From Clostridiales bacterium (GTDB taxonomy: Bacteria > Bacillota > Clostridia > Oscillospirales > Acutalibacteraceae), in the NCBI GenBank assembly GCA_019418545.1, contig DYBQ01000003.1, positions 1 through 64,000 of the forward strand: a DNA stretch of 64,000 nt. Reading direction: 5' to 3'. Numbering within the stretch: the stretch's first letter is position 1; each line of letters opens with the position of its first letter. Of the stretch, positions 1 through 38,387 are shown piece after piece. The position numbers and the translations under genes were made by a program. A model generated the notes under the pieces. The model searched no databases. It saw only the letters and a list, made by a program, of their open reading frames with translations, and had not been told where the DNA came from.

Positions 1-3000
1 CGTCGTCCAGAACTGCCTTGGCGGCGGCCACAGCGTCCTCGAAGAACTTCTTGGCGCTGTCGGTCACACCTTCGGTGCTTTGCTTCAGCGCATACTCATA
101 GGTTGCCTGCAGCAGGCTCTTGTCGGGAGCCACATACTCTTCCAGACCTGCAATCGCGGCATTCAGAGCCTCTACAGCTGCATCCACATCATCCTGCGTG
201 GCTTCTGCGTTGTCATTCACTTCGTTAGCCTTAGCCAGTGCGTCGGCAAACACTGCCCAGCTGGCCTTGGTATAGTCGGCTTCGTCATACTGAGCGGCAT
301 CGGCGATTGCTGCTGCCAGTTCAGTCTTGTCAACGGGAGGTACATAGTCTTCCAGACCTGCGATAGCGTCGTTCAGAGCCTTCACAGCTGCATCCACATC
401 TGCCTGAGTGGCTTCTGCGTCTGCGTTCACTTCGTTAGCCTTTGCCAATGCATCGGCAAACACTGCCCAGCTCTCGGCGGTATAGTCAGCTTCTTGATAC
501 TGAGCTGCATCAGCAATAGCTGCTTCCAGCTCGGTCTTATCAACAGGGGTGGGCTCGGGGTTCTTGGCCAGAACACCCATCATGCTCCACTCATAAATAC
601 GGGTGGAAGGCCACTGAGCGGAGGTATCGCCCTTAGTGACGTTCAGACGGAAGTAACGGCCGGTAACAGATTCAGTAAACTCATAGTGAGTACGGTTTTC
701 CTGGTTGTTTTCATAGGAAGCAACCGTCGTCCAGTTTGCATCATTAGTCAGGAAGCTTTCGTCTGCCAACTGCTCAGCGGTGGGATTTGCTACATTGAGA
801 ATCTGCAATTCAAAATCGCGGGTATTGCGGCCGGAGCCATCACTGAGGTTGACACCTGCGTGGGACATATTCCACTCGGTCAGGGTGTAATATGCACCAA
901 CATCAATAATCAGCTGAGACTGTACTGCGTTGCCGCCGGGGCACCACTTGGTTCCTTCGTCCTTATCAAAGGCGAATTCAGGATCTTCCTTGGAGTTGTG
1001 GTCGCTCTGCTCGGTTGCATACAGGATGGTGGGATTGACGGTGATGTCCACAGGCGTGGTAGCCTCGCCGCCGTCGCCAACGATAATGGTCAGGGTGCCA
1101 ACGGTTTCATTCTCTGCATTCTTATAGGTAACAGTATAGGTGATGTCCTCTGCCAGAGACAGAACCGTACCCTCGACGGGTTTGAAGTTCTGGTCTGCAA
1201 CGGAAACAGTAAAGGTTTCGTCGGGCTTGGCATTTACATCTACATCCTCTGCCAGGAAGGACTTGCCGTTAATCAACTGCTCCTTCAGGCCGGCATATTC
1301 GTTGCCGCGGACGGTATAGGCCTTTTCTGCATAGGACATAACGTCCACAGTGCCCTCAGCGGAAACTTCCATGTTGATAGCTTCAGTGGGCAGGAAGTAT
1401 ACGCCGGAATACACGTTGGGATGCTGGTTGTCAAACTTAACAGCCTCTGCGGGTGCGCCGTCACCCTCATAAATCATAGCCTCTACCATAGCGGGCCAAT
1501 CCAGATATCCATCGGGATGGGGCTGCCATTCGGTAACGGTAATCTTTACATAGCGGGCGGTAACTGGGGTTTCCAGCTCGGCAACAGTTTCAGACAAGGT
1601 GTCTGCGGTGTCGGCGGGAACAGTGTTCAGGGTGCTGATGGTGGTATACTCACCGTCTGCAGTGTCGGAAATAGCCAGTTCAGCGGTCTTCACACCGAAG
1701 GGACGGAAAGGTGTATCGGTGTTGGTCTTAATCCAAATGCTCCAGGAGCCGATGGTCTTCTCAGAACCCAAATCCAACGTGACAGATGCAGGTTGGTCCC
1801 GCTTATTGGTAGCGGTTTCTGCGGCGTTGGTGTCAGTGCCTGTATTGCCATCCACAAACAGCGCTGCATTTGCTACGTTTTCGGAAGCGATAATAGTAGC
1901 ACTGGGAGCCAAGTTGACTTTGTCAGCACTCTGTGTTTCAACAGTTGCAGTAGCAGCCAGAGCTGCCTCTACAAATGCGCGCTCGGGAGTTCCTTCGCTC
2001 AAATCCAGCTTGTTGTCGGAAATATCAACGGATTTAATAGCTGCATATTCGCCAGAAGCGTCCAGCTTTTCAAGACCGAGGCCTGCCAGATTAACAGTTT
2101 CCAGAGCGGTACAGCCGCTAATGTTAACTTCCTTCAGTGCTGTGCACTTGTCCAGACCGGAAATGTTGGTGAGGGAGGTGCAGCCACTGAAATCAATACC
2201 TGTCATAGCAGTCAGGCGGTCCAGACCGGTCAAATCGCTGACCTCAGTACCAGACAAATCCAGAGTGCCAGTAAACTCTTCCAGCGTATCCAGAGTCAGA
2301 CCAACTTGCTCTTTCACAGCATTCAGCAGTGCTGCGTCGGGGAATTGCTCTTCGGTAATCAGATTGGTGGGGTCAACAACCTGTCCGCCTTCAATCATCA
2401 CAACCGTAGGCTCAGACTGGTTGCCGGCAAAGTCGCCAGTAACCACGCTCAGCAAACCATCGCCGCTAATACTGAAACGCATGGTTGCAGTAAAGCGAGC
2501 TACGCCGCCACGCTTGAAGCTGGCCACTTGCTTGCCGTTAAAGGTAGCAGTCATGGTGTACCAGTCAACGGAATCCGGGTCAACCAGCCGCACAGAGCTA
2601 CCGCTGACGCGGATATCTTCTTTGGCGATAGGCTCGGAATAGCTGTCGTTAGACCAACCGCGATAGCAGATGGGTTCGCCCTTCTCGCCGTCACGAACAG
2701 CATAAATCTTCAAATCGTACTCATAGCCCTCTTCCACGGGCAGGGGAATCGTTGCAGAAGTCACATCGCCGCTGGTGGTGTGGGTGTACACCTGATTGTC
2801 GGGGTCGTCCTTGGCAATGTTGCGCAGGGTGACTTCATACTCATAGCTGTCGGGAGCACCGGTTTCGGGAGCATCAAAGGAAACATCCAGCTGACCAGGG
2901 GTTGCTGCACGAACCAACAGACCAGTAGAGGTCTTGGCTTCTTCCACCTTGACATTGCTCACCTTGTCGGTATAGGTATAGGTCAGAGTTGCGGGGTCAC

Positions 3001-5152
3001 TCTCGGTGCCGTCGGCGCCAACTGCGCGCAGCTCCAACTCGATGCTGTCGTTCTCATCGAATACAGATTTCACATACAGAATGCTGTCGTACACACCGCC
3101 CAGATAGACGCGGCTGCCGTCAGACAGGGTTCCATATACGTTGTACTGCTTCACGCTGTCATAGTCGGCCATATCCCAGCTGAGGATCATTTCGCCGGAA
3201 TCGTAAGCATAATCAACAGCAAAGCCGGTGGGGGTAGCGGGCTTGTCAGCGCCGTCGGAGATCTTCAGACCGCCCACGTTGATCTGATAGCCTTCTGCCT
3301 CGCCTGCAAATTCCAGGGTAATGGCAGCAATTTGTCTTCCAGCATACTTGGACAGATCCACATCCACAGTGGTCCAGTCACCGGCGGTTTCGGAACCGGC
3401 GATGTCCAGCTTCTCGGTGGTTTCGGGAGCGTCCTTGAAGATCAGGCCCAGCTGCATGGCAACTGCGTCATCAGAGGTCTTCTTGAAAGTAATGGAAGCT
3501 TCGGAGTTTTCGTTGACAGCCAGATCGGTCTTGTACAGATGCAGGCTGTTAGAACCGGTAATGTTGCCATAAACTACCAGAGAGGAACCGCCCTCATAGG
3601 CGCCTACCTGGGTATAGGGCATGGTAATGGGCTTGTCGTTGACATCGTGGTTGACCAGCTTGCTGCCATAGTCAAAGTCCACTTCCAGTTTCTTGTCGTC
3701 GGTGCTTTCCACCCACCACTGCCAAGTCGGCAGGATATCCTGGATGTTGATGTTGGTCCAAGCCTTGTCAGCGGAAACAGCGCCGTCCACAAAGTACTGC
3801 ATGCCGTGACCGGTGTTGAAGTTGGTGTAGAACTTGGTGCCGTCGATGACGGAACGCTCGGCAATAAAGTCAGCCACGCCGACCCAGCCGGAAGCGTTGC
3901 TTACCTGCACATCGGGACGGCTGTAACCAGCCTTCAGGCCGGTATCCGTGGGATCTTCCTTCACGCCGGAGAAGAACATTCTTTCGCGCTCGGCCACCAT
4001 CCACTGGAACTCATCCCGCTGCATGGGAGGTGTGCTCTTTCCATCGTAGAAGGGAACCTCGTCCACGCCGCGCTGATACCAGTCACTGGGGGTGAACAGA
4101 GCCACGCTGGCGCGGGGGTTGCCGGTTTCATCATACAAGTTTGCCATATTCCGGGCACTGGAGTGACCACCGCTGAACTTGTTCTGGTTGCACTCTGCGC
4201 CGAAAAAGATGCTCTCAAAGGGGTCAACGCCGATCTGCTCGGCATAGGTGATGGCACTGTCCACAGTGGATTTGCTCCAGCCATAGTTGACGAATACGGA
4301 GTTGTTGATCTGTCCGTTGACATCATCCTTCAGCCACTGGGCTTTTGCAGAGTTAAAGCTGCTGTTGGTGTCATACCACTGGGTATACAGGCCGGCTTCG
4401 GTCAGCTTGGCCATAAAGGGTTTGAATTCTTCATAATAACCTTCTTCCTGATTCAGGAAGTAACCGTCAAAACCCATATATTCGGCGATTTCGATGAGCT
4501 TGTCTGCAATAGAGAACTCACCATTTTCGTCTTTTTCAATCAGGTCAGCACAGGTCTGGCCAGGACGGAAAGCAGGGTCAAAATAGATGCAGGCGATAGA
4601 CATAACGCCGTTTTTATGAGCAGCATTGGTATAGGCCGGGTTGGGAATGTTCACAATACCAAACTCAAACCCTCTTGCCTGCCAGTCACTGGTAATGGGG
4701 TCATAAATTGCTTCGGGGGTATAGGCAGTTGCTGCGCCATGCCAGGGAGAGAAGTAGTCAGTATACTGCCAGAAATTGAGCACATGCTCGCCAAATTTGT
4801 CGGTATACATGGTGCTGTTGAAGAAGCTGTTGCCATAGTCGCCTTGCATCAGCATAACCTGTGCATCGGACTCCAGATAGGGCTTAGCCTGGGTTGCCTG
4901 AAATGCTTCATTGCGCTCCTGCAGCGGCACCTCTGCTCTCAGGAACTCTGCATAGGGGTCGGTTTCAGGGCTCCAGTTTTCGATGTCCTTCACCCGGTAG
5001 CCTGCAAAGCTGGGCTCAGCAGACGCCTTGTCGTTGGGCCAGGAGTCGGAAGCAAACGCAGTGAAGGAAGTGCTCAAAGTGGTAAACACCAGAGCAGCTG
5101 CCAAAAACGCTGCGCCGACCCGCTTGGTCCTGCTTGTTTTCTTCATTTTCAT
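1..5152 (-). CDS. Secreted multidomain GH85-family endo-beta-N-acetylglucosaminidase-like protein; C-terminus runs off the window start
   Basis: Reverse-complement reading from ATG 5152 (RBS AAAGGGG) gives MKMKKTSRTKRVGAAFLAAALVFTTLSTSFTAFA signal peptide. GFDGYFLNQEEGYYEEF motif checked in frame at 4443-4510 matches the GH85 N-x-E catalytic motif. Downstream by eye: LRR-like repeats, two discoidin-like segments, classic FIVAR repeats (DYTAESWAVFADALAKANEV), then the same C-terminal cassette as the three paralogs at nt 1-130. No minus ORF in the track only because the stop lies outside the window; the listed + ORF 80..5209 is its antisense shadow. Confidence 0.7.
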   Translation of the reverse strand, partial: MKMKKTSRTKRVGAAFLAAALVFTTLSTSFTAFASDSWPNDKASAEPSFAGYRVKDIENWSPETDPYAEFLRAEVPLQERNEAFQATQAKPYLESDAQVMLMQGDYGNSFFNSTMYTDKFGEHVLNFWQYTDYFSPWHGAATAYTPEAIYDPITSDWQARGFEFGIVNIPNPAYTNAAHKNGVMSIACIYFDPAFRPGQTCADLIEKDENGEFSIADKLIEIAEYMGFDGYFLNQEEGYYEEFKPFMAKLTEAGLYTQWYDTNSSFNSAKAQWLKDDVNGQINNSVFVNYGWSKSTVDSAITYAEQIGVDPFESIFFGAECNQNKFSGGHSSARNMANLYDETGNPRASVALFTPSDWYQRGVDEVPFYDGKSTPPMQRDEFQWMVAERERMFFSGVKEDPTDTGLKAGYSRPDVQVSNASGWVGVADFIAERSVIDGTKFYTNFNTGHGMQYFVDGAVSADKAWTNINIQDILPTWQWWVESTDDKKLEVDFDYGSKLVNHDVNDKPITMPYTQVGAYEGGSSLVVYGNITGSNSLHLYKTDLAVNENSEASITFKKTSDDAVAMQLGLIFKDAPETTEKLDIAGSETAGDWTTVDVDLSKYAGRQIAAITLEFAGEAEGYQINVGGLKISDGADKPATPTGFAVDYAYDSGEMILSWDMADYDSVKQYNVYGTLSDGSRVYLGGVYDSILYVKSVFDENDSIELELRAVGADGTESDPATLTYTYTDKVSNVKVEEAKTSTGLLVRAATPGQLDVSFDAPETGAPDSYEYEVTLRNIAKDDPDNQVYTHTTSGDVTSATIPLPVEEGYEYDLKIYAVRDGEKGEPICYRGWSNDSYSEPIAKEDIRVSGSSVRLVDPDSVDWYTMTATFNGKQVASFKRGGVARFTATMRFSISGDGLLSVVTGDFAGNQSEPTVVMIEGGQVVDPTNLITEEQFPDAALLNAVKEQVGLTLDTLEEFTGTLDLSGTEVSDLTGLDRLTAMTGIDFSGCTSLTNISGLDKCTALKEVNISGCTALETVNLAGLGLEKLDASGEYAAIKSVDISDNKLDLSEGTPERAFVEAALAATATVETQSADKVNLAPSATIIASENVANAALFVDGNTGTDTNAAETATNKRDQPASVTLDLGSEKTIGSWSIWIKTNTDTPFRPFGVKTAELAISDTADGEYTTISTLNTVPADTADTLSETVAELETPVTARYVKITVTEWQPHPDGYLDWPAMVEAMIYEGDGAPAEAVKFDNQHPNVYSGVYFLPTEAINMEVSAEGTVDVMSYAEKAYTVRGNEYAGLKEQLINGKSFLAEDVDVNAKPDETFTVSVADQNFKPVEGTVLSLAEDITYTVTYKNAENETVGTLTIIVGDGGEATTPVDITVNPTILYATEQSDHNSKEDPEFAFDKDEGTKWCPGGNAVQSQLIIDVGAYYTLTEWNMSHAGVNLSDGSGRNTRDFELQILNVANPTAEQLADESFLTNDANWTTVASYENNQENRTHYEFTESVTGRYFRLNVTKGDTSAQWPSTRIYEWSMMGVLAKNPEPTPVDKTELEAAIADAAQYQEADYTAESWAVFADALAKANEVNADAEATQADVDAAVKALNDAIAGLEDYVPPVDKTELAAAIADAAQYDEADYTKASWAVFADALAKANEVNDNAEATQDDVDAAVEALNAAIAGLEEYVAPDKSLLQATYEYALKQSTEGVTDSAKKFFEDAVAAAKAVLDD

Positions 5153-5455
5153 TTCCCCTTTCTGAATTGTCTATTTCAACATATCCGCTGTGGACAGGGA
5201 TATGAATGAGACGACTTGCACCAAAGTCTTCAACAACATTTCCAACAATAAATTCTTATAAATCTCCTGCTAACTGTCGTTGTTTATACTATATCACAGG
5301 ATTGCAATACAAAATACACAACAAACTTGAGTTTATATAATAAAAACAAAACATTTTTATATTTTCCTTTTCGATTTTTAAGAGATATCACTGTTGTAAT
5401 GACATTTGAATCTACCACCTGTTAGGTTTTTCTATCCCCAATTTGAGGTTCCCTC

Positions 5456-12601: not shown

Positions 12602-15600
12602 TCAGGCTCTATTTTTTCTTCTAACAATACACACCGCAAAGCCGCAGCCTGCCACAGCAAGAACAGCAACCAACCAAATCACATTGGTGGAATCACCAGT
12701 AACAGGAGATTGAGGTTTGCTGGTTTCGTTCTCCTGACTGCCGTTATTCTTGTCATCATCAGGCTTGGAAGTATCACCATTATCGGAAGCATCTCCGTCA
12801 TCGTTAGTGCTCAAGTTCTGGATAGCAGCTTTCAGTTCTTCCACAGCCTCATCCACTACTCCCTGGTCATCTTCGCTCAGAGTTTCGTCTGCCAGAACTG
12901 CCTTGGCATTCTGGAAGGCTGCCGCAAACACTGCAACACTTTCGGCTGTGTATCCGCTCAAATCCATTCCTTCGGCCTTATTTACCAAATCCTCCAGAAT
13001 CGACTTGTCTGCCTTAAAACGCTGAGCAAGAATCGCGTTCAGCAATGCTTCTGCTGCCGGCTCTATGTCTTCTTCCATGGCATCGCCGTCATTATAAATG
13101 TCCTTAGCTGCTGCCAGTGCGTCGATAAGCTGCTGCCAGTTATCCTGCACATACTTGTCAGATTCAGCCATCATTTCATCTGCCTTGGCAATCAGCTGCT
13201 CCAGCATGGTCTTGTCGCCCTGGGTCAGTCCCAGGCCCCAGATACCTTTCAGCAGGTTGTCCCATGCCGCATTGACTTCTTCCTGGGTTGCCTTTTCATT
13301 GTCCAGAACTGCCTTTGCCTCTGCCAGGGCATCCTCAAAGAACTTCTTTGCGCTGTCCGTCACACCTTCGGTGCTCAAAGCCAACGCATACTCATAGGTC
13401 TTTTGCAGCAGGGTTTTGTTAGCAGAAATCGGCGCAGACAGTTGAATGAATTCAAACTTATCTAAGTTCCATCCACCAGTAAGTACATTCAACCTAATGG
13501 TATACGTACCCGGTTCTGTAAAAGTCACTGTATCAGTAACTCTCTGATAATTCTGCCATCCTCCTGTTGTTGGTAAGTTTGTCACAGCAAGAGATTCTCC
13601 ATTAGCTAGAAATTCGACCTGTCCCATTGCGTTATTAACACTGACTTTATAATTGAGCTTATATTCTCCGGCGTTTTCAATATGAACTTGGTACTCCATC
13701 CAATCTCCATCATCAATATACGCCGCATAAGAACCATCGTTTTCCAGCTGAATACCACTTTGCTGTGTAAAGTCTTCTCCTTCAACGGTAATTACTTTCG
13801 ATTCATCAATCATGGTAAAGCTATAAGTATCACTATAAACCATCGGCTCTGCCATAACACAGGAAGCTACACGCCAGTAATAAGTTTTGCCAAAATCCAA
13901 ATCAGGCAGGGCTATTTCGGAATCTGAAGTCATTTGTGTAAACACAATATCTGTAAACGCAGAATCCGTTGCAACTTCTACCTGATAGGTAGTTGCATTG
14001 CTGCAAGGAGTCCAGGTCAGATAGTCAGGCTGTGAAATATTCTCCGCTTGATTATCAGGTCTTTGCAAAGTAACTCTTTCCACAGAATCGAATAGGGATT
14101 TCCCAGTCATAGCCTCTACTGTATTGATAATGTGAGTTTTCAACTCGTCGTAACCTTCCGGCTTTTCCGGCCAGCTGAACTTATTGTCAACCCAGGTATT
14201 GCTTCCATAGCCTTTATCAATGGTTCCTTGCTCCATAGACCATACCAAGTTGTTTTCTACTGTAATATTGTCAACTCCATCGTCCATATAGAGTGGGAAG
14301 GTCCAGTGCATTCCTTTTTCCGTTTTGATAATAATATTATTGGAGTAGCGGTTGTCATTTCCACAACCCCAAGCGTATAGTCCGCCGCCATCTTCAACGC
14401 CTGTCATATATTCGTCCACAATATTATATTCGATTACATTATTACGGCTATGTGTAAATTCTTTGACTTCTTCTCGTGTATAATCTTTGTGAAGTTCCAA
14501 ATCATCCCAACGGAATCCATATTGACGGTCCATATTTCCAAAGAAATCCCATGCAGCAGAAAATTTATCAGAATTAAAACCTACTGCAACTTCTCCAAGA
14601 ATCGTTACTCCGGCATAAGGAGACTTAGAAATATAGTTATAACTGATGGTATTTGAGCCACTCTGATATAGTGTAATACCAGCTGTATGCGGATAAGGAG
14701 CGAGTCCTAAATCATGGATGTTATTGTACATTACAGTATTATTTTTGTTAACATCCAATGTTCCAGGTCCATAACCAAAGAAATTCACGCCTCCGCTTCC
14801 CAAGTCACCAAGCTCATTTCCAAGAATCTCAATGTTTTGTGCATGATGGCTCAGTGTAATGCCATAGGAGCCAGAATGCTGAATTGTGCAATTGATAATC
14901 TGGCAATTTTCCGCATTTTGAAAATAAACCGAAGCATCAGGATTTTCAGTGTTTCTTATTACATCGTATTGGTCAAACTGACTTTCCGGCAAACGGTCAT
15001 TATATTCAATTACCAAATTACTCAGAGTAATGTGATGGACGAGATTTTCCCAATTTTTATCTTCATCATCGCCCTGGAATCGAACCAATTCATAAGGAAC
15101 AGGTGCGACAACCCTTTTGCTCGTAAAGTTGCTGTCTTTAGGCCAGTAATAGACCTTTCCTTCACGGCTATTTACACACCACTCACCCGGCTGGTCCAGA
15201 TATTTAATGTCATTCAGAATATTATACCAGCCGCCTTCTTTTGTATTAAAACTATTCATGTTATCGCCCAAATTACTGGGATTATAGGAATACAGATAGG
15301 CGGTGTTATCCTCTTCATTGATTTCAGTCAGCAAGGGCAAAGCATTCCAAAACATGACGGTCATACAGTTAACCTCAATGTCGGGATTATCTGTTAAACC
15401 ATCTAATTCTCCTTCGTTAAAACGGACTTTAATGCCTTTTTCAGGATTTAATTCCAAAAACTTACTGTCCTCTTCGCCAATTGCACCTGAAAACTGGGGC
15501 CAGGTACGAAATTGTTTGGTTTCCATTTGTTGAGAAATCTGCTGACATTCTCCGTCCACATACAAGTCGTGGAATCTCCAGCCGGTCTCAATATCAGCTA

Positions 15601-16948
15601 CATACAGGTTTCCTTTTGCTTCCTCTGCCATATAAGGAACTTCTTCTTCCAAGGGAACCCATCCAGTAATGTCCTTTCCTCCGGTAATGACTGCCTGTTC
15701 ACCGGGATACGAGGTATATACAATGGGTTTTCCGGCTTCACCGCTGTCTTCTGGTGTAAAAATGATGGTTTCTTCCTGATAATATTCTCCGCCTCGCAGA
15801 TATACGGTAACACCGCCATCCGGCAGAGTTTCCAACTGACGGATGGTATCACGAGCTTTCTGCAATGTTGCAAAGGGAGCTTCCTCTGTACCCGGATTCT
15901 CATCGGAACCGGTTGTGGAAACATAATAGAAAGTGCTGCATTCTGCTGTCTCATACACTGTAACCTTGCAGGAAGCCATTTTTGTAGGGTCTGCTGTTGA
16001 TGTTGCGGTAATTACGGTTGTTCCTTCTCCTTGTGCAGTAACCATTCCGCTTTCCTTGTCAACAATGGCCACTTCTTCGTTGCCGCTACTCCATATTACA
16101 CTCTTATCCGAAACTGTGGAGGGCGTTACTGTAGCATTCAGAAGTACCTTTTCTCCTTTTTCCAGGCTGACTTCCGTCTTGTCCAGTTCTACTTTTTCTA
16201 CAGGGATAGTAGTTTCAACTCCCACCACTTTCACATTGTCGAAAATTGCCTGAGCGCCGCAAGCAGAAAGTTTGATTCCTCCACAAGTTGTCGGGGCTCC
16301 ATAGTTTCCGCTGTCCTTTCCAGTAAAAATCGCTTCTCCATACTCTTCATCTTTCGGGGCACAGTATGCGCTGACCGTATCCCCCGAAAAGACTAGCTTT
16401 ATTTTATATAGCTTGCCGGGTTCCAGCTCATAGGAAGATTCTTCCACTTTATTTCCACCTGAGCTGTAATGATACTTGTTGAGTTCAAAAGTCTGAGAAG
16501 CCCGGCGATACATAATTTCCCAACGCTGCTCGGGACTGGTATGCGAACGTCCTGCCAAGCCCACATTGTCATATTGTTTCATGCCAGCATCGCCATGGTC
16601 AATCCATTCTTCAATGGCAAAATCGGCTTCCACAGAATAGTCTTGCCATTCGGACTTTCCGGGAAACAAATCTATCGATGTTCCCCACTCTCCATCAACC
16701 GGGCGGAGCCTCATAACATAGTTCCCGGTGCCGTCGTCCACTACATTAACTTCCGCTGATTCGGGAACCTGCCATTCTTCCCGAAGGCTTCCGCTGTCAA
16801 AATTATCCTCAAACAGCACCTCAGGTGTAATGCCGCCTTCAGAGTCGGATTCCTGCGCTGTAACAGATACAGCAGCCATCTGTAATGCAACAACAGCTGC
16901 AAGCGTACCACAAAGTACTTTTTTAAAATACTTTTTTAAGCCATACAC
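12602..16948 (-). CDS. Cell-wall-anchored multidomain beta-helix protein, paralog A (1448 aa)
   Basis: GTG start, RBS AAGGAG. Signal peptide; LamG/DUF1080-like N-domain; Big_2; beta-helix cap YYVSTTGSDENPGTEEAPFATLQKA and PbH1-type repeats; FN3-like; CBM6/35-like (GGWQNY, NLDKFEF); FIVAR-like cassette; D/N/G linker; PVTGD + TM + RRKNRA sorting signal. Confidence 0.9.
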   Translation of the reverse strand: MYGLKKYFKKVLCGTLAAVVALQMAAVSVTAQESDSEGGITPEVLFEDNFDSGSLREEWQVPESAEVNVVDDGTGNYVMRLRPVDGEWGTSIDLFPGKSEWQDYSVEADFAIEEWIDHGDAGMKQYDNVGLAGRSHTSPEQRWEIMYRRASQTFELNKYHYSSGGNKVEESSYELEPGKLYKIKLVFSGDTVSAYCAPKDEEYGEAIFTGKDSGNYGAPTTCGGIKLSACGAQAIFDNVKVVGVETTIPVEKVELDKTEVSLEKGEKVLLNATVTPSTVSDKSVIWSSGNEEVAIVDKESGMVTAQGEGTTVITATSTADPTKMASCKVTVYETAECSTFYYVSTTGSDENPGTEEAPFATLQKARDTIRQLETLPDGGVTVYLRGGEYYQEETIIFTPEDSGEAGKPIVYTSYPGEQAVITGGKDITGWVPLEEEVPYMAEEAKGNLYVADIETGWRFHDLYVDGECQQISQQMETKQFRTWPQFSGAIGEEDSKFLELNPEKGIKVRFNEGELDGLTDNPDIEVNCMTVMFWNALPLLTEINEEDNTAYLYSYNPSNLGDNMNSFNTKEGGWYNILNDIKYLDQPGEWCVNSREGKVYYWPKDSNFTSKRVVAPVPYELVRFQGDDEDKNWENLVHHITLSNLVIEYNDRLPESQFDQYDVIRNTENPDASVYFQNAENCQIINCTIQHSGSYGITLSHHAQNIEILGNELGDLGSGGVNFFGYGPGTLDVNKNNTVMYNNIHDLGLAPYPHTAGITLYQSGSNTISYNYISKSPYAGVTILGEVAVGFNSDKFSAAWDFFGNMDRQYGFRWDDLELHKDYTREEVKEFTHSRNNVIEYNIVDEYMTGVEDGGGLYAWGCGNDNRYSNNIIIKTEKGMHWTFPLYMDDGVDNITVENNLVWSMEQGTIDKGYGSNTWVDNKFSWPEKPEGYDELKTHIINTVEAMTGKSLFDSVERVTLQRPDNQAENISQPDYLTWTPCSNATTYQVEVATDSAFTDIVFTQMTSDSEIALPDLDFGKTYYWRVASCVMAEPMVYSDTYSFTMIDESKVITVEGEDFTQQSGIQLENDGSYAAYIDDGDWMEYQVHIENAGEYKLNYKVSVNNAMGQVEFLANGESLAVTNLPTTGGWQNYQRVTDTVTFTEPGTYTIRLNVLTGGWNLDKFEFIQLSAPISANKTLLQKTYEYALALSTEGVTDSAKKFFEDALAEAKAVLDNEKATQEEVNAAWDNLLKGIWGLGLTQGDKTMLEQLIAKADEMMAESDKYVQDNWQQLIDALAAAKDIYNDGDAMEEDIEPAAEALLNAILAQRFKADKSILEDLVNKAEGMDLSGYTAESVAVFAAAFQNAKAVLADETLSEDDQGVVDEAVEELKAAIQNLSTNDDGDASDNGDTSKPDDDKNNGSQENETSKPQSPVTGDSTNVIWLVAVLAVAGCGFAVCIVRRKNRA

Positions 16949-16985
16949 CTATTACACAACTCCTTTTTTATAACCTATAGAGAAA

Positions 16986-17022
16986 GCAACCGCCCCATTT
17001 TTTGAAATCATGGGGCGGTTGC
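16986..17022 (-). terminator. Hairpin between paralogs B and A, weak U-tract (possible partial terminator)
   Basis: GCAACCGCCCCAT/ATGGGGCGGTTGC 13-bp stem, followed on the minus strand by TTTCTCT. Only 37 bp upstream of the gene A start. Confidence 0.5.
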
Positions 17023-17069
17023 CTCCTTCAAAAAATAATTTTCCCGAAAGTCTGGGTAATAAAAGGCTT

Positions 17070-20000
17070 TTATACCGTTTTTCTGCGCCGTACCAGTGTA
17101 GCTGCTCCCAATACCATAGCAGCAAATATCATGATAATCCACTGCATATTTTGGCTGTTATCTCCAGTAGCGGGGGTTTCAGACTGATTGCCTTCGGCGC
17201 TGTTGTCATCAGTCGGTTTCTGAACGGAACTGTTACCATCATTGTTATCATTCTTGCCATCATCAGGCTTGGAAGTATCACCATTATCGGAAGCATCTCC
17301 GTCATCGTTAGTGCTCAAGTTCTGGATAGCAGCTTTCAGTTCTTCCACAGCCTCATCCACTACTCCCTGGTCATCTTCGCTCAGAGTTTCGTCTGCCAGA
17401 ACTGCCTTGGCATTCTGGAAGGCTGCCGCAAACACTGCAACACTTTCGGCTGTGTATCCGCTCAAATCCATTCCTTCGGCCTTATTTACCAAATCCTCCA
17501 GAATCGACTTGTCTGCCTTAAAACGCTGAGCAAGAATCGCGTTCAGCAATGCTTCTGCTGCCGGCTCTATGTCTTCTTCCATGGCATCGCCGTCATTATA
17601 AATGTCCTTAGCTGCTGCCAGTGCGTCGATAAGCTGCTGCCAGTTATCCTGCACATACTTGTCAGATTCAGCCATCATTTCATCTGCCTTGGCAATCAGC
17701 TGCTCCAGCATGGTCTTGTCGCCCTGGGTCAGTCCCAGGCCCCAGATACCTTTCAGCAGGTTGTCCCATGCCGCATTGACTTCTTCCTGGGTTGCCTTTT
17801 CATTGTCCAGAACTGCCTTTGCCTCTGCCAGGGCATCCTCAAAGAACTTCTTTGCGCTGTCCGTCACACCTTCGGTGCTCAAAGCCAACGCATACTCATA
17901 GGTCTTTTGCAGCAGGGTCTTGTCAACCACATGAACCACCACAGTGGCTTCCAAATTTTGCGGATTACTCAAACCTATTTTTTCGAGCGGGTTCGTGAAT
18001 GTTGCCTTTAAAGTATAGGTTCCAGCTTTATTTGCCTGATAACCGTCATCGTTCCACTGCACAGGCAGAAGATAGGAAGTCCCATCCTCCAAAATAACGG
18101 GAACTCTGCTGGGAAGTTCCAAGGACTCAAATTTTGTTCCGACAGATACAGTTGTTTCTTGTGCTGGAATCTCTGAAACTGTACCTACAGATACTTCTGT
18201 ATCTCCTCCGAACAATTCCAACTCATAAATTCGTGCAATTTTTGTTCCTTGATAAGCTTGTACCGGCTCGGGAATATAAAGTCTAATATATCTTGCTTTA
18301 ATTGTCTGGTCCAATGTACACTCTGTAATAGTTTCCGTATTTCCGGTCACTTCATCAGCCGTTATCCAATCTTCATCATTAGAGCCAGAAGGTGCCTCCA
18401 AATTGGAATACTGCAAAGAGAAATCCATTGTATTTTTGTCCATACCTTCACCGGCAATGTTCGCATGATACACACGCCAGCCAACAATCTCTTTCTCTTC
18501 ACCCAAATCAACAACTGCCCATTGAGGAGTTCCTCTATCCGAACACCATTTGGTTTCAATATTACCATCTGTCAGGCATTCTTTCTGTTCAGTGGGCCAA
18601 TCTGTATGAGAAGATACTTCCACTACTTCTTTATTCAACGCAACATTATTATTGACAGTAATATACCATTTTCCCACTGCCTTACCGTCTACCATAGCTT
18701 TTACCATCGTGCTGCCTTTACTAATAGCAGTCACTGTACCATCCTGGTTTACCATGGCAACAGATGGATTGGAGGATATCCATGTGAGTTCCTCTGGCAA
18801 AGAATCATTATCCAAATCTTTAGTATTTCCCAACACCATGTTGACTTCCTGGATTTCTACAGTAGAATCCGTATCCTCCAGCCAGCCGCCTTCTGCCTCT
18901 GCTACTGCAACAATCTTATCGTACAATTCCTGATATCCATCAGGCGGAGTGCTCATGTTAGAAGAAGAAAGATTATCGGTAAAGGTATTGTCACCCTTGT
19001 TTACCGTACTAGTCTGAGGTGCCCAAATACGGTTCCCTTTCAAAATGGTACCATCCACTTCATCGTCCATATAGAGCGGATAGACCCAACCGTGTCCGGA
19101 TTCAGACTTATAGATAATATTTTCTTCAAACAGGTTTCCAACATCACATCCCCAAGTATACAAGCAACCGCCATCATCGGTTTTCATCATGTATTCTTCG
19201 GTAATATTGTGACGAATTACATTATATCCATCGTGCTTGAATTGTTTTACTTCTTCACGAGTAAAATCGCCGCCATCTGGATGCAGCTGCAATCTAATGG
19301 GGTCTAACTCTTCATAACGGGCGCCATACTGGCCAAAGAAATTACCATAAGAATCCACACCAAAATGACGAGTTCTCTCGGCATCTCCCGGGATAAATCC
19401 GCTCATAACCTGCCAGTTGGTTCCTGCAACAGAAATTGAGGAATAGGGGACATTTTCAATCTTATTGTATTCGATTTCATTGTGGTTACTGCCAAATATA
19501 CTAACAGCACCTGCATGCATATAGGGAGCAAGACCCAAATCAGAAATGTAATTCCGTCTAATTACATTGTGATGGTTAACGTCCAGGGTACCTGCACCAT
19601 ATCCCATCAGTTCAATTCCACCTGCTCCGGTTCCAACAATGCTGTTCCCTACAATTTCGTTATTCTGAGCATAATGGCACAGGGCAATACCATAAGTACC
19701 AGTATTCTTAATTTTGCAGCCTTCAATCACACAGTTTGCAACGCCATCCATATAAATAGCTGCATCGGGATTTTCACTATACCGCTTTACCCAGTCAGAG
19801 GGGAATTCATCTTCCGGAAGACGGTCTGTGTAGGAAAACTCCAAATCTTTGAGGGTAATATACTCAACCTGATTTTCAAAGTTTTCTTCTTCTTTATCTC
19901 CCTGGAATTCCACAATCCGATAGGCCTTAGGAACGATTACCTTTTGTGTTTCCAAGTCCTCGTCTTTGGGCCACAAATAAACTTTGCCATTCTCAGAATC

Positions 20001-28315: not shown

Positions 28316-31300
28316 TTAACCCTCAGTATATTTGCGACGAAAAACGAAAACAACTGCAAAACCAAACATTAATCCAGTAAACATTAATAACAAATCTGTA
28401 TTGCTGTCTCCTGTTTCTGGTATCTGGGAATTATTATTTTCATCGGTGGGACTATTCGAAGAAGTTTCATTTCCAGAAGTACCATTGTCCGGCTTGCTGG
28501 CGTTATTATCTCCCTTACCATCATCAGTATCGGGCTTACCAGTATCGGCACTCAGATTTTCAATGGCATTTTTCAGCTCAGTTACGGCCTCATCTACCAC
28601 AGCCTGGTTATTTTCGCTCAGTGTTTCATCTGCCAACACCAGATTTGCATTGTACAGAGCAGCGCGGAATACTGCCACACTTTCTGCTGTATAACCGCTC
28701 AAATCCATTCCTTCTGCCTTGTTAACCAGCTCTTCCAGAATCGATTTGTCCGCCTTAAACCGCTGGGCCAAAATTGCATTCAGCAGAGCTTCTGTTGCCG
28801 GCTGTACATCTTCTTCCATAGCGTCGCCGTCTGCCATCACTTTTTTGGCCTCAGCCAGGGCATCCACCAGCAGCTGCCAATTGTCCTGCACATACTTGTC
28901 CTGGTTAGGAATCATAGCCTCTGCCTTAGCAATCAGCTGTTCAAACAAAGTCTTGTCGCCTTGTACAAGTCCCAGACCCCAAATGCCATCAAGCAGATTG
29001 TCCCATGCAGTATTGACTTCTTCCTGAGTTGCCTTAGCGTCATCCAAAACGGCCTTGGCTTCTGCTACTGCTTTTTCAAAGTATGATTTTGCGCTATCCG
29101 TCACACCTTCTGTGCTCAGGGTCAAGGCATAGTCATAGGTTTTCTGCAGCAGGGTTTTATTGGGAGCCACATACTCTTCCAGACCTGCAATCGCATCATT
29201 CAGAGCCTTTACAGCTGCATCTACTTCTTCCTGGGTAGCTTCTGCATTATCGTTTACTTCATTTGCTTTTTCCAGCGCATCCGCAAATACTGCCCAACTA
29301 GCCTTGGTGTAATCAGCTTCTTCATACTGCGCTGCTTCTGCAATTGCATTTTCCAACGCAGTTTTGTCAGCAGCAGGAACGGCAGCTACTACACGGACAT
29401 TGTCTACTTCTGCATATTCACGGCCAAAACCAATACCGATACCACCTGTGGCACGCATCTGGTCAGTTTCAAACTCATAAATCAGCTCAGAATCAATAAA
29501 GTAACGCACACGATTTCCAAGGTGTTCTACGCGGCAATGATAGGTTTTTCCAGTCTCTACCACAAATGGGCTTCCTGTAGCAAAAGTAGTCCAGTTATTT
29601 CCTTTTCCCATCACAGCTTCCACTATGCCACTTTTTCTCATTGCCAACTGATTAAATTGACGAGGATTCAAACCAGTTCTGGATACCAGACCAATAGCAG
29701 AATACTCTTCAGCCCCATCCTGATAACCTGTGATGGTAATATCAGCTTCAAAGGCGTAGTCAGACCAATCAGCAGTATCATTGTTAACAAAGAATTCCTG
29801 CCAGCTGCCATCGTATTTCATTACACCGTTTTCGGTTTTTACTTCGCCTCCCTGCGGGCTGACCCACAGTTCGCTTGCACCATTATCAAAGTTATCCTCA
29901 AACAGGACTTCTACTTTTCTTGTGGTAACGGCAACAGGCTCACTGGCTTCTCCTTCACCTTTCTGGTTAGATGCGCTTACCTTATATTCATAGGTTTTTT
30001 CCGCAGCTACATTTTCATCGAGATAAGAGGCCGAATCAATATTTTCAGCTATTTTTTCAAAGGTATCTGTGCCTGCTTCCCGGCGATATACGGTATAGGT
30101 ATAATGATATCCTTCTTCCCAGGAAATCATGACTGCATCATAATCGTTTTCCAGCTTGATTTCTGTGGGAGCTTCGGGTACAGTTTCTTCTTTGGTAGTG
30201 ATTACAAAAATTTCGCTCTGGCTGTTTGCACCTGCCTGTCCCAAAGCAGAAACTCTCCAGTAATAAGTTTTGCCATAATCCAGTTCTACATCATCTATCC
30301 GAGTTTTTGTAGTTTCCTGGCTTACCAGAATATCTGTAAATTCAGCATCAGAGGCAATTTCCAATTGATATTTCGCTGCATTTTCAGAAGCATTCCAAGA
30401 AAAGTCTACAACAGGAGCCAAGTCTTTTGCATTATTTTCGGGAGAAGAAAGTACCGGTACGCCCAGAGGAGCGGTTTTAAAACCACCGACTGCTTCTTCT
30501 GCCTGATTCATAATGGACTGATACAACTCGTCATAGCCAGCGGGCTTATCAGGCCAACCATACTGGTTATCAATATAGGGGTTGTCACCCTTATTCAGTT
30601 CTGCCTGGTCAATTGCCCAAATACGGTTTCCTTCTACAGTTGCTCCATCAGTATAGTCGTCCATATACAACGGCCACAGCATATGACGTCCCTTTACTGA
30701 CTTATGCATGACATTAAAGCTGAAGCTGTTGCCCAAGCCAGGATACCAAGCATACAAGCATCCGCCATCATTCATATCCGTCATATACTCTTCGATGATA
30801 TTGTATTCTACTACATTATTGACCGAGTGCTGATATTCCTTGCAGTCCCAGCGGCCAAAGTCTTTTCCGCCCAGCTCGTCCCAACGGATGTTATATTGAC
30901 GGTGTTTATCGCCAAAAGTATCATACGATGCACGGGTATCAGGGGTAGAAGCCGACATACTGTTATGGTCTGTTCCCATAATACTAAACGCTGTATATGG
31001 AACATTGGTAATATAGTTATAGGTCAACGTGTTATAACCACTTCCAAACACACTAACAGCCGGGGAATGAAGATAAGGTGCCCGTCCGGTATCATGGATA
31101 TTGTTATACATAACGGTATTATGGTGGTTTACATCAGTAGTGCCTACACCATATCCATTAATCTGGACGCCGCCGCATCCTAAATCGCCCAATTCGTTTC
31201 CGATAATATTATTATTCTGTGCGTAATGGTCCAGTGTTACCGCATAGGTTCCCGAATGACGCAGAGTACAATCAGTAATTGTACAATTTGCTGTTCCCTG

Positions 31301-33223
31301 GAAATAAACCATAGCATCGGGGTTTTCGGCATTTCTTACCAGCCAGTCATCTCCAAACTGGTTTTCGGGAACACGGTCGGAATATTCAATGGTCAAGCCA
31401 CTGAGAGTAATATATTCTACCTGTTTTTCCCAATTCTGCTCTTCTTCGTCTCCTTGGAAGCGAATCAATTCATACGGTTTTGGAGCAATCATTCGGCTGT
31501 CTTCAGGATTGCCGTTTTCCGGCCAGTAATACACTTTGCCTGCTTTACTGTCGACACACCATTCACCAGGTTCATCGATAAATTTCAGTGCATTCAGGAT
31601 TTGGTAGTAACCATAATCATTATCACCAAAAGTGGCAGGGTTCATAGATTGCAGATAGACTGTATTAGACTCTTCATCAATTTCCGTCACAACCGGCAAA
31701 TAGTTCCAGTAAACTACTGGCATCAGATTAAGTTCAATGTCCTCGCTGCCATTGAGTCCATCCAGCATACCGTCCTGGAAGGTTGCCAAAATTCCCTTTT
31801 CTTTGTCAGGAGCTGCACGGTGAACCATCGTCGGCCACTGTCCCCAGTCATTGGTATTGGTACTGCGGGAAACTTGCAGCCGCTTTCCATCGGCATACAA
31901 ATCGTGGAAACGCCATCCGGCTTCTACATCTGCAACATACAGGTTTCCTTTTGCAGCATCAGAAACATTTTCCAAATTTTCATCTGCAAGCTGCCATCCG
32001 GTAATTTCCTGTCCGCCGGTAATCACTGCTGTCTCTCCAGGATAAGAAGCATACACGATAGGTTTATCCCGTTCGCCGCTGTCTTCTGGCGTAAAGGTTA
32101 GGGTTTCTCCCTGATAATATTCGCCTTCCCGCAGATAAACCGTCACACCACCCTGCGGCAAAACCTCCAGATTGCGGATTGCATTGCGGGCAGCCTGAAT
32201 CGTTTGGAAAGGAGATTCCTCTGTTCCGGGGTTCTCATCATTTCCGTTGGGAGAAACATAGTAGAAGGTAGTACACTCGGGCACTTCATAGACTTCTACC
32301 TGACACTGGGCGCTGACTTCAGGAGCGGATGCAGATGTAACGGTAATCACAGTAGTACCTGCTGCAACAGCCGTTACTATGCCTTCGTCGCTCACTTGTG
32401 CCACATTGGAATCAGCACTTTCCCACACCAAAGATTTATCAGAAGCATTTTCCGGTGTAACAGATGCAGAAAGCGATGCTGTTTTCCCTGCTTCCAAAGA
32501 CATTTCACTTTGGCTGAGGGTGATTGTCTCCACAGGAATCTGATGCTCAATTCCCGTCACCTTAAAGTTATCAACCCAAAAATCTCCATACACACCTTCA
32601 ATGGAAACGCCGCCAAAGGTAAGGCTTGGACTTTCGGTATCTGTGTATGTAATGACAGGTTCTGTAAATTCCTGTCCTTTTTCCGCAAAATATGCCCGGA
32701 TTACATTACCGTCAAAATCCAGCTTCATATGATAGTCTTTCCCAGTATCCAATGTAAAGGGCACTTCCATAATTGGATGACCCCATCCATCATAGAATTT
32801 ATTCAGTTCCAACACTCCACGTTTCCGGTAATACAAACCCCATCGGTCTTTGCTGGCGGAGCAGCGTCCGGAAATGCCAATGCTGTCATATTGTCCGTTA
32901 TATTCCGAAGGCTCAATCCAATGGTTAATCCGAAAATCCATTTCGATTGAGTAATCAGTCCACTCTGCTTTTCCCAAATTCAAATAAGCAGATGGCCAAT
33001 CACCTGTAACATTCCAAACTTTATTTCCTGTACCATCATCTACAATCTGCTCAGACAAATCAATATCCCAACCTTCCTGGACATCACCATCAAAGGTTTC
33101 ATAAAACAGAACATTGTCTTCCTCTGCTTCAGCTGTAGGTTCTGCTAAAACAGGAATCGCTGTCTGCACCAGCAAAACACCTGCGAGCAGCAGGCTTCCC
33201 AGTGCTTTTTTCCAGGATTTCAT
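28316..33223 (-). CDS. Cell-wall-anchored multidomain beta-helix protein, paralog C (1635 aa)
   Basis: Signal peptide; LamG/DUF1080; Big_2; beta-helix; two FN3-like domains; a second LamG/DUF1080-like domain; three FIVAR-like repeats; diverged copy of the C-terminal cassette; PETGD + TM + RRKYTEG sorting signal. Confidence 0.9.
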   Translation of the reverse strand: MKSWKKALGSLLLAGVLLVQTAIPVLAEPTAEAEEDNVLFYETFDGDVQEGWDIDLSEQIVDDGTGNKVWNVTGDWPSAYLNLGKAEWTDYSIEMDFRINHWIEPSEYNGQYDSIGISGRCSASKDRWGLYYRKRGVLELNKFYDGWGHPIMEVPFTLDTGKDYHMKLDFDGNVIRAYFAEKGQEFTEPVITYTDTESPSLTFGGVSIEGVYGDFWVDNFKVTGIEHQIPVETITLSQSEMSLEAGKTASLSASVTPENASDKSLVWESADSNVAQVSDEGIVTAVAAGTTVITVTSASAPEVSAQCQVEVYEVPECTTFYYVSPNGNDENPGTEESPFQTIQAARNAIRNLEVLPQGGVTVYLREGEYYQGETLTFTPEDSGERDKPIVYASYPGETAVITGGQEITGWQLADENLENVSDAAKGNLYVADVEAGWRFHDLYADGKRLQVSRSTNTNDWGQWPTMVHRAAPDKEKGILATFQDGMLDGLNGSEDIELNLMPVVYWNYLPVVTEIDEESNTVYLQSMNPATFGDNDYGYYQILNALKFIDEPGEWCVDSKAGKVYYWPENGNPEDSRMIAPKPYELIRFQGDEEEQNWEKQVEYITLSGLTIEYSDRVPENQFGDDWLVRNAENPDAMVYFQGTANCTITDCTLRHSGTYAVTLDHYAQNNNIIGNELGDLGCGGVQINGYGVGTTDVNHHNTVMYNNIHDTGRAPYLHSPAVSVFGSGYNTLTYNYITNVPYTAFSIMGTDHNSMSASTPDTRASYDTFGDKHRQYNIRWDELGGKDFGRWDCKEYQHSVNNVVEYNIIEEYMTDMNDGGCLYAWYPGLGNSFSFNVMHKSVKGRHMLWPLYMDDYTDGATVEGNRIWAIDQAELNKGDNPYIDNQYGWPDKPAGYDELYQSIMNQAEEAVGGFKTAPLGVPVLSSPENNAKDLAPVVDFSWNASENAAKYQLEIASDAEFTDILVSQETTKTRIDDVELDYGKTYYWRVSALGQAGANSQSEIFVITTKEETVPEAPTEIKLENDYDAVMISWEEGYHYTYTVYRREAGTDTFEKIAENIDSASYLDENVAAEKTYEYKVSASNQKGEGEASEPVAVTTRKVEVLFEDNFDNGASELWVSPQGGEVKTENGVMKYDGSWQEFFVNNDTADWSDYAFEADITITGYQDGAEEYSAIGLVSRTGLNPRQFNQLAMRKSGIVEAVMGKGNNWTTFATGSPFVVETGKTYHCRVEHLGNRVRYFIDSELIYEFETDQMRATGGIGIGFGREYAEVDNVRVVAAVPAADKTALENAIAEAAQYEEADYTKASWAVFADALEKANEVNDNAEATQEEVDAAVKALNDAIAGLEEYVAPNKTLLQKTYDYALTLSTEGVTDSAKSYFEKAVAEAKAVLDDAKATQEEVNTAWDNLLDGIWGLGLVQGDKTLFEQLIAKAEAMIPNQDKYVQDNWQLLVDALAEAKKVMADGDAMEEDVQPATEALLNAILAQRFKADKSILEELVNKAEGMDLSGYTAESVAVFRAALYNANLVLADETLSENNQAVVDEAVTELKNAIENLSADTGKPDTDDGKGDNNASKPDNGTSGNETSSNSPTDENNNSQIPETGDSNTDLLLMFTGLMFGFAVVFVFRRKYTEG

Positions 33224-35944: not shown

Positions 35945-36038
35945 ATCAATTTCCCCTTTCAAAAATTAATTCTTCATTGTGTGCGCTATATATGAACCCG
36001 TACAAACGGTTTCATTGATAGAATGATATCATAATTGA

Positions 36039-36929: not shown

Positions 36930-36943
36930 AATAATCCCCTCCT

Positions 36944-37879: not shown

Positions 37880-38278
37880 GTCACCAGATTTACACCTACA
37901 AACATTTTCAAAATCATCCTGCAACATTACCAATAGATATTCTCACATATACTTTTTATGAGAATCTATACGGATGTTTCTTTCACTCCCCAATCACTAT
38001 GATTCTGTTTTGTTTGTGTGTTTACAATGTACTGGTATTGCTGGTCAATGTTTTTTCTGTCTGTATGGTAACATGACGGAAATATCAGCTGCAACTCTAA
38101 AATTATCTTTTTAGACTATAACTTCATAACTATTATTTAAATTCTTTTGTGATTTCTCCAAACATGCCGAAATTATATATAAAATTGCACAAGTGTACAG
38201 TGGGTATCATTGTGTGTTATTGACACATTTGCCCAATTTCTGTTTTTATAAAACTTTTATTCAATAAAATCTATAATC

Positions 38279-38330
38279 AAAACAGGCACAGTACAAACGG
38301 AAGAGTCGTTTTGCACTGTGCCTGTTTTAA
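38279..38330. terminator. Hairpin terminator-like element between the URO-D-like gene and the ABC permease
   Basis: AAACAGGCACAGT...ACTGTGCCTGTTT stem; the T-tract is stronger on the + side. Confidence 0.4.
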
Positions 38331-38387
38331 TTTCATTATCCTACTTAGAAAGGATATTTCCAATATCCTGTGCAGCTTTACGATTAC

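Follow-up and report, generated by a model that had tools for sequence, protein, structure and literature searches.

Introduction

Gene conversion and the concerted evolution of duplicated genes are familiar in bacteria, for instance from the tufA/tufB pair of Salmonella and from the rRNA operons, and gene conversion in duplicated bacterial genes was reportedly reviewed by Santoyo and Romero in 2005. The present text concerns a comparable situation in a Clostridiales bacterium (Oscillospirales; Acutalibacteraceae), where a 661-bp block of DNA is found in base-identical form within two neighbouring genes, here termed A and B, that encode putative surface enzymes. The sequence analysed, referred to as the window, is the whole 64,000-nucleotide stretch at positions 1 to 64,000 of the forward strand of contig DYBQ01000003.1 (assembly GCA_019418545.1). 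The block encodes a module of three FIVAR domains, which would act as the stalk of each protein, and we attribute its identity, with a probability of roughly 0.85, to recent gene conversion between the stalk cassettes of A and B, which are tandem and anciently diverged paralogs.

How does this pair compare with the systems that have already been described? The likeness to concerted evolution of the tufA/tufB type lies in sharply bounded identity within diverged paralogs, in the homogenisation of synonymous sites, in copies that, as assembled, are identical within a genome and different between strains, and in a presumed dependence upon homology. The difference is that in A and B a single internal module is homogenised, with the heads and anchors remaining divergent, and that the 5' end of the identity is set by a domain break rather than by gradual decay. 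A further likeness is with the streptococcal M and M-like genes of the emm-enn-mrp group and with pneumococcal PspA/PspC, which are also neighbouring or dispersed anchored paralogs with conserved termini, variable centres, and chimeras and deletions born of recombination. The zinc metalloproteases IgA1 protease and ZmpB, ZmpC and ZmpD (PMC3518915) reportedly form a mosaic, recombining, wall-anchored family that can be likened to A and B, and ZmpB also contains FIVAR-type modules (profile match; fold match 7jrm). Unlike the emm, Psp and Zmp families, A and B reside in an uncultured commensal gut member of the Oscillospirales, and the cargo in this locus consists of putative glycan-degrading heads of the beta-helix, carbohydrate-binding module (CBM) and GH85 kinds rather than immune-evasion adhesins or proteases, with no sign of immune selection.

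In terms of the stalk itself, tandem three-helix bundles of ~70 aa are likewise located between catalytic or binding domains and the wall anchor in S. pneumoniae StrH, C. perfringens NagH/ZmpB, Bifidobacterium LnbX/HypBA2 and staphylococcal Ebh/Embp; compared with these known FIVAR glycosidases and adhesins the sequence and fold matches of A and B are weak, and their stalk role is a putative one. Finally, the block resembles the collapsed or loop-resolved repeats of de Bruijn graph assembly in being longer than the reads, present twice per contig and base-identical, in assemblies that differ only inside it. It is unlike a pure collapse in that collapse needs true copies that are nearly identical beforehand, and so cannot create the contrast with paralogs that are only 56-76% identical. 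With the A/B stalk a further, clear case is added to what is known of concerted evolution and of the mosaicism of Gram-positive surface proteins, and no new mechanism is involved; in the literature library that was searched, no paper tying FIVAR modules to gene conversion was found.

The shared block and its boundaries

The two genes, the two copies of the block and the gene-specific tails that follow them are arranged in the window as follows.

12602..16948, minus strand: gene A, 1448 aa, with a GTG start and AGGAG upstream; identical to database protein P0121
17070..21743, minus strand: gene B, 1557 aa, with a head of the same type as in A, the two being only ~56% identical in nucleotides; identical to P0188
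12754..13414, minus strand: block copy 1, gene A aa 1179-1399; three FIVAR and the first ~14 residues of the D/N/K-rich linker
17258..17918, minus strand: block copy 2, gene B aa 1276-1496
12602..12753, minus strand: A-specific tail, made up of what is left of the linker, the sorting motif, the membrane helix and the positively charged end with its stop; the sequence departs from that of the B tail directly after the block
17070..17257, minus strand: B-specific tail, the longer of the two, which has a sorting signal of its own

The preliminary description of this DNA had proposed that positions 12754-13414 and 17258-17918 are the same base for base, and this proved correct: direct string comparison finds all 661 bases equal, and at neither end can the match be lengthened by even 1 base. 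A self-BLAST of the window returns the pair at 99.7% over 674 bp, a lower figure because 2 flanking mismatches are included. The identical antisense small open reading frames (ORFs) that had been remarked upon in both copies follow trivially from identical DNA. The block had also been equated with the 3' ends of the genes, and here the identity holds but the placement does not, as the two genes diverge over their final stretches (152 nt in A, 188 nt in B), which encode the rest of the linker, the sorting motif, the membrane helix and the stop. The copies are direct repeats with an offset of 4504 bp and, in the minus-strand orientation of the genes, each starts at codon phase 0, such that the block is in frame in both A and B.

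Outside the block A and B are 56% identical at aligned sites, and the longest identical run there is 17 nt, with a longest run of 33 nt over 2000 shuffles of the sites in the A/B alignment. The probability of 661 matches in a row, even at a per-site identity of 81%, is ~1e-57. A chance origin of the identity is excluded.

The edges of the block are equally well defined. Its 5' edge coincides with a domain junction, reading ...SAPISAN/KTLLQ in A and ...VVVHVVD/KTLLQ in B, and upstream of KTLLQ the two genes encode unrelated domains, so that the homology itself ends there. The 3' edge falls inside a low-complexity linker (KPDD/DKNNGS in A, KPDD/GKNDNN in B), and A and B therefore each retain their own sorting signal. 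Between these edges the block corresponds exactly to the three-FIVAR unit plus the short start of the linker.

Substitution evidence for recent gene conversion

The window contains two further genes with related FIVAR modules, which serve for comparison.

28316..33223, minus strand: paralog C, 1635 aa, with a three-FIVAR module at 28563-29161 that is 76% identical to the block
1..5170, minus strand: gene for a GH85-type surface enzyme, truncated by the window start, with a FIVAR region at 5-124 that is 81-82% identical to the 5' part of the block

The corresponding regions of these genes had been put at 80-85% identity, which does not hold for paralog C and holds approximately for the GH85-type gene, where the comparison covers only ~120 nt before the window ends.

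Fundamental to the interpretation of the block is the behaviour of its synonymous sites, which was followed with Nei-Gojobori windows of synonymous (pS) and nonsynonymous (pN) differences. The two copies of the block show no synonymous difference at all (pS of 0, ~144 synonymous sites), as compared with a saturated pS of 0.6-0.86 and a pN of 0.3-0.5 between A and B outside the block, in the heads, and a pS of 0.60-0.69 with a pN of 0.11-0.18 between the A/B stalk module and that of paralog C. Constraint at the level of the protein leaves synonymous sites free to change, and a pS of 0 therefore indicates recent common descent of both DNA segments through conversion or recombination, in support of the recent exchange between the cassettes that had been put forward in the preliminary description. 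Tandem paralogs in other species (L001 and L025) have modules that are only 71-73% identical, and so the identity is not a general property of the family. A search of JGI metagenomes with a 42-nt block probe gave no exact match and returned four distant modules at 65-73% aa identity, which were used only as a baseline.

The process can be pictured as follows. Homologous recombination, probably of the RecA type, between the stalk cassettes would recently have overwritten one copy with the other in a non-reciprocal manner. The conversion tract would end on its 5' side at the limit of homology, where the last carbohydrate-binding or Ig domain gives way to the first FIVAR, and on its 3' side inside the low-complexity linker, such that the heads and the sorting signals stay gene-specific. 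Crossing-over between the same direct repeats would remove one 4504-bp unit and join the B head to the A tail, and short patches may be traded with more distant copies such as that in paralog C. The stalk together with a conserved segment in the 5' part of the head could also provide homology arms, between which central catalytic/CBM regions would be swapped in frame between loci, strains and species.

A second assembly and a variable patch

The arrangement of the window is seen again in L023, a 33.3-kb ENA contig from a different project, which is colinear with window positions 31743-7070 at 99.943% identity and which has the same C...B-A order and, once more, two identical 661-bp copies. Of 24,674 positions, 14 differ between the two assemblies. 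They fall at 7 sites per copy, which coincide in the two copies (block positions 288, 289, 291, 309, 316, 333 and 344), with 0 differences across the other ~23.3 kb. The sites define a patch within the block.

13071..13127, minus strand: 57-bp variable patch, block positions 288-344, containing all 7 sites that differ between the window and L023
17575..17631, minus strand: twin 57-bp patch in copy 2, with the same 7 sites

Between the window, L023 and a third locus, L021, the module differs at 7-9 sites, as compared with 0 differences within the window and 0 within L023, where a graph assembler may write identical copies by construction. Zero differences within a genome against 7-9 between strains is, as far as the assembled sequence goes, the pattern of concerted evolution. 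When the patch is written in the order 288-291/309/316/333/344 its haplotypes are TAC-T-A-T-A in the window, GGA-C-G-C-G in L023, TAC-C-G-C-G in L021, TAC-C-G-C-A in L016 and GGA-T-A-C-A in L018, a set that, judged from the combinations of these letters, is recombinant. L016 is an N-gapped scaffold in which a foreign head is joined to the A tail; only its 3' half was used, and its candidacy as an A-tail gene with a foreign head was dropped on account of the gaps. L017, which has very low coverage and contains frameshifts, was used only qualitatively.

A probable deletion allele and probable exchange with paralog C

Locus L021 (28.8 kb) is from the same species and keeps the gene order of the window, to which it is 98.9% identical upstream and 99.8% identical downstream. 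It is without exactly one 4504-bp unit, and in place of A and B has a single gene (product P0125) that consists of the B head, one module and the A tail, followed by the DNA that lies downstream of A.

13415..17918, minus strand: the 4504-bp repeat unit missing from L021, comprising the A head, the intergenic region, the B tail and one block copy; 12754-17257 is equivalent, the end-points being ambiguous within the repeat

Crossing-over between the two direct repeats would be expected to yield just this structure. A protein fragment from another sample, P0189, has the same B-head/A-tail junctions with a different module haplotype. The existence of a B-head/A-tail deletion allele in L021 is probable, not proven.

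The single module of L021 also contains a 13-bp patch, with T, T, T and C at block positions 159, 165, 168 and 171, that matches paralog C at 4 of 4 sites. The C module of L021 itself, compared over block positions 100-215, differs from that of the window at 2 sites, both of which are in the A/B state. Paralog C is the likely donor of the 13-bp patch, and the letters at these sites point to conversion on the scale of tens of bases, across a distance of 11 kb and between copies with 76% identity.

Elsewhere along the locus the divergence of L021 from the window is patchy. There are 68 mismatches per 1.5 kb in the gene for the AraC-type regulator (26500-27999) and 38 per 1.5 kb in the B head (19500-20999), and many other bins have 0-3 mismatches per 500 bp, a distribution that suggests imported recombination tracts along the whole locus.

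Alternative explanations

Several points count against recent conversion as the full account of the block, and relate largely to how repeats are assembled. Both of the assemblies with two copies are probably short-read graph assemblies, to judge from their contig sizes (101.8 kb for the NCBI contig that encodes P0121 and P0188, 33.3 kb for L023) and from N-gapped ENA scaffolds such as L016, and these two are the only assemblies worldwide in which both A and B are present. A repeat that is longer than the reads is one graph edge walked twice, and the identity therefore arises partly by construction. The way in which the window and L023 differ at the patch, alike in both copies, could be explained at least as easily by A and B truly differing there, with each assembler keeping another branch of the bubble, and the fusions in L021 and P0189 could be assembler paths that skip the loop. 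Furthermore, the donor and the recipient of the 661-bp tract are indistinguishable.

The strongest of the alternatives takes up these points. It holds that conversion is real but that base-perfect identity is in part an assembly product, with A and B differing at the 57-bp patch (7 single-nucleotide polymorphisms, ~98.9% identity) and one bubble branch having been written twice. In keeping with this, the window and L023 differ solely at the same 7 sites per copy with 0 differences at ~23,350 positions elsewhere, 7 sites packed into 57 bp would, at the usual k, give one bubble, and L021 joins the window state at 288-291 to the L023 state at 309-344, as expected of a crossover between two such copies. 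On the other side, the patch sites segregate between strains, with further haplotypes in L016, L018, P0189 and P0210, and the patch could instead have entered one copy and then been copied to the other. We consider a partial contribution of the assembler to be a serious possibility, if at somewhat less than even odds, and it refines rather than contradicts the explanation by gene conversion. The caution about assembly collapse voiced in the preliminary description was well placed to this extent: the 7 clustered sites are the same in both copies, and it is near-identity that has been independently verified and not base-perfect identity. Any further hidden differences between A and B would be few, because both assemblies would have had to choose the same branch each time. 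The true identity of the A and B blocks is at least ~98.9%, with perfect stretches of 287 and 317 bp, and the conclusion that conversion has taken place stands either way.

Very improbable by comparison is a gross mis-assembly, in which only one gene truly ends in the module and the other copy has been pasted in by a chimeric join. Assemblies do fail at the module, given that the module proteins in public metagenomes are almost all short fragments at contig ends and that the L016 scaffold is of the kind described above. However, without the module both genes would lose the stalk and the in-frame link to their own anchors, and the in-frame junctions are clean. The order head B-block-tail B-head A-block-tail A is moreover the sole linear path that uses all of the pieces, it is reproduced by L023, and the related genes in other species all have the order head-FIVAR-anchor.

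Less probable still is that selection at the nucleotide level, acting on an embedded antisense gene (ORF 12710-13465, plus strand) or on a structured RNA, keeps the copies identical. Long antisense ORFs do overlap both copies of the block, but the divergence of the module from that of paralog C, with a pN/pS of ~0.2 in the sense frame at the pS given above, is that of ordinary protein-level constraint, the paralog C module is without an antisense ORF of >= 150 aa, and the module varies between strains at synonymous sites. Rfam gave no match at the block, and a longer antisense ORF lies opposite the GH85-type gene, from which such ORFs appear to be a compositional by-product here.

Programmed variation of the stalk, whether by silent-cassette antigenic variation, a shufflon or a diversity-generating retroelement, would be in keeping with the clustered substitutions and mosaic alleles but is similarly improbable, as every copy is a complete gene that has a ribosome-binding site (RBS), a signal peptide and an anchor of its own, the substitutions are not confined to adenines, the window contains no inverted repeats of >= 40 nt, and no Pfam match to a recombinase, integrase or reverse transcriptase was found among the called genes of the colinear loci L021 and L023, where several small ORFs are without any Pfam match. 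The antisense-ORF, functional-RNA, shufflon and retroelement readings were rejected on the basis of the C-module pS, the Rfam null result and the lack of inverted repeats.

Head swapping in a sister species and other mosaics

Alongside the probable conversion between the stalks of A and B there are mosaics in which other parts of the genes have been reassorted. In a sister species, in which the counterpart of A (A') is 74% identical to A in amino acids, one locus is found in two forms.

L019/L020 10001-14674 and L022 10001-14569: two alleles at one sister-species locus, with unrelated central catalytic/CBM regions
15532..16240, minus strand, in the window: best-conserved head segment of A, with its B counterpart at 20348-21053; 71% identical over 709 nt and 81% in the core; contains FTPEDSGE

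The two forms match at 98-99% over the 10 kb upstream of the gene and over gene nt 1-1198, and again over all that follows from the three-FIVAR unit's first codon. The central ~2.6 kb differs, being of the A' type (CBM6 and a fourth FIVAR) in L022 and of the B type (F5/8C and Big_4) in L019/L020. The 5' switch occurs right after a 25-nt stretch that is identical in all four genes and encodes FTPEDSGE, and the 3' switch of the sister-species chimera falls at KTLLQ, the junction that is also used in the window. Between the B-type centre and that of window B the identity is ~91%, as compared with ~78% for the A' and A heads and ~71% for the flanking genes, which suggests, at the level of sequence, lateral movement of the B-type centre.

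Within the sister species the A'-type and B-type centres are each found in many independent assemblies. The chimeric form was found as 11 different full-length proteins and the A' type as 7, and 6 of these 7 A'-type proteins have the tail of the chimeric set. The chimeric allele is present on Logan contig L019; Logan contigs are assembled conservatively, and on that account the chimera is not an assembly artefact.

Other combinations occur as well. In the mosaic P0210 the centre is of the A' type, the module of the window type and the tail of the B type, and P0184 combines an A head with a tail of the sister-species type. P0184 (A-type, 1454 aa, with the foreign tail) and P0210 (A'-type, 1523 aa) are each encoded on a 23,424-bp contig, and may lie on one contig as a differently assorted tandem pair.

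The position of the sister-species locus is also informative. Its A'/B-type gene lies between genes for a GH127-like protein and ABC transporters on one side (compare window 34442-41248) and an AraC gene on the other (compare window 25774-27296), which is the slot of paralog C in the window. This slot in the chromosome is therefore filled by a different type of paralog from one species to the next.

That conserved 3' cassettes might drive domain shuffling among the surface enzymes had been suggested beforehand, and such shuffling is seen in the assembled data, in the B-head/A-tail fusion of L021/P0189, in the L019/L020 chimera as against L022, and in P0210 and P0184. A more far-reaching proposal is that the FTPEDSGE head segment and the FIVAR stalk are the standing homology arms of an exchangeable-cassette system that operates across loci, strains and gut Oscillospirales species, with the head alleles kept as a balanced polymorphism; this is a tentative idea, and one that we regard as rather unlikely.

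Architecture of the encoded proteins

What kind of protein is it whose stalk would be exchanged in this way? A, B and C are built to a common plan, with a signal peptide, an N-terminal domain, Big_2, a beta-helix head, variable binding domains, 3-4 FIVAR and a D/N/K/S-rich linker.

Gene A domains: signal peptide, N-terminal domain, Big_2, right-handed beta-helix head, CBM6, 3 FIVAR, linker, SPVTGD, hydrophobic helix, RRKNRA
Gene B after the head: Big_2, F5/8 type C, Big_4, 3 FIVAR, linker, TPATGD, hydrophobic helix, RRRKTV

In paralog C the binding domains include fn3 and others, and the sorting motif is IPETGD. All three proteins have K-rich hydrophobic leaders at the N-terminus, and at the C-terminus an xPxTGD motif, ~20 hydrophobic residues and an RRK-type tail. 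With the TIGR01167 LPXTG_anchor profile (cut-off 15.9) C scores 16.6, B falls just below the threshold at 15.0 and A gives no match, the motif being xPxTG and not the canonical LPxTG. In the heads the Pfam Beta_helix match is above cut-off, and the GH141_M profile (cut-off 27) gives 25.9 for A, 25.4 for B and 28.0 for C. The head matches PDB entry 9rx2, a 'parallel beta-helix repeat protein', with E = 4e-67; the match to BT_1002 (GH141) is weak and extends over only ~90 aa. The best explanation of these features, drawn from profile and fold comparison, is that A and B encode putative sortase-type cell-wall-anchored beta-helix enzymes that degrade glycans.

The Pfam FIVAR profile (PF07554, cut-off 29.2) gives 58.9 bits for A, 59.6 for B and 82.7 for C, over 3, 3 and 4 stretches respectively. 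An AlphaFold2 model of the stalk, built with 41 homologues, has a predicted local distance difference test (pLDDT) score of 93.9 and contains 9 helices arranged as 3+3+3 three-helix bundles with a disordered tail. Its structural neighbours, all of them weak, are the FIVAR-type modules of StrH, Embp, EbhA, NagH and ZmpB (best PDB sequence match E = 0.002; Foldseek E ~0.007-0.09). The FIVAR module may span the cell wall as a stalk.

In the GH85-type gene the tandem FIVAR repeats (118-337 and 325-547) are 82.5% identical to each other, and this repeat region shows 77% identity with the fourth FIVAR that paralog C has in addition (1-343 against 29038-29380). FIVAR units are therefore also common to otherwise unrelated enzymes. 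The G+C content of window positions 1-4000, which belong to the GH85-type gene, is 53-54%, with ~36-50% in the remainder outside 58-60 kb and 41-45% around paralogs A-C, a contrast that may reflect a different origin of the GH85-type gene.

The DNA between B and A is short and has signals of its own.

16949..17069, minus strand: region between B and A, in which a GC-rich hairpin, GCAACCGCCCCAT...ATGGGGCGGTTGC, precedes TTTCT and which also contains the RBS of A

A GC-rich hairpin can be read in the sequence after both A and B, and each gene has its own RBS. A scan for consensus terminators did not call the hairpins after A and B, the B-A hairpin probably being missed for its 11-nt loop. The hairpin and the RBS between B and A suggest, as signals read from the DNA, that the two genes may be separate transcription units.

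Locus context

Further products of the locus are a GH127-like protein, sugar transporters of the ABC type, regulators of the AraC and WYL types and an Rnf complex, and no tRNA genes were found in the window. The glycyl-tRNA synthetase, on which the taxonomic placement was based, is 85% identical to that of Anaeromassilibacillus and 95-99% identical to those of Firmicutes metagenome-assembled genomes. From the names of samples and the codes of studies, the window and its relatives probably derive from the human gut. A scan of genome contigs returned no conspecific genome, the best relative being 52% identical at the protein level and found in metagenome-assembled genomes (MAGs) labelled as Lachnospiraceae.

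Two further observations were made. An ORF of 1709 aa at window positions 80-5209 (plus strand) runs antisense to the whole of the GH85-type gene; at 5.1 kb it is unusually long, and its low-complexity translation, rich in G/C/V/I/L, makes it look like a compositional by-product of sense codon usage. At 62689-62805 (minus strand) there is a full-length match to 5S rRNA (79 bits), beside a PRD/CAT antiterminator gene at 62972-63835, and the rest of the window yields neither a 16S nor a 23S match; the 5S is either a lone gene or the edge of an rRNA operon that lies mostly beyond the window.

Implications

The stalk module also has a practical side, which concerns the databases. The best 120 database matches to the 221-aa stalk module (P0001-P0120) are all fragments of 132-381 aa, mostly from short contigs and often marked 'partial', in a list of matches that is not exhaustive, given that the full-length A and B proteins in the collection are absent from it. 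Short-read metagenome assemblies seem to break systematically at the stalk module, and inventories of surface carbohydrate-active enzymes (CAZymes) drawn from MAGs of these bacteria may be under-counted or chimeric.

For the biology of the organism, the locus offers a concrete view of how a gut commensal would reshuffle its cell-surface glycan-degrading enzymes, with recombination keeping the stalk near-identical and the stalk in turn supplying the homology for fusion, loss and head swaps. The weight of the finding would rise if the head-swapping polymorphism were truly a cassette system maintained across species.

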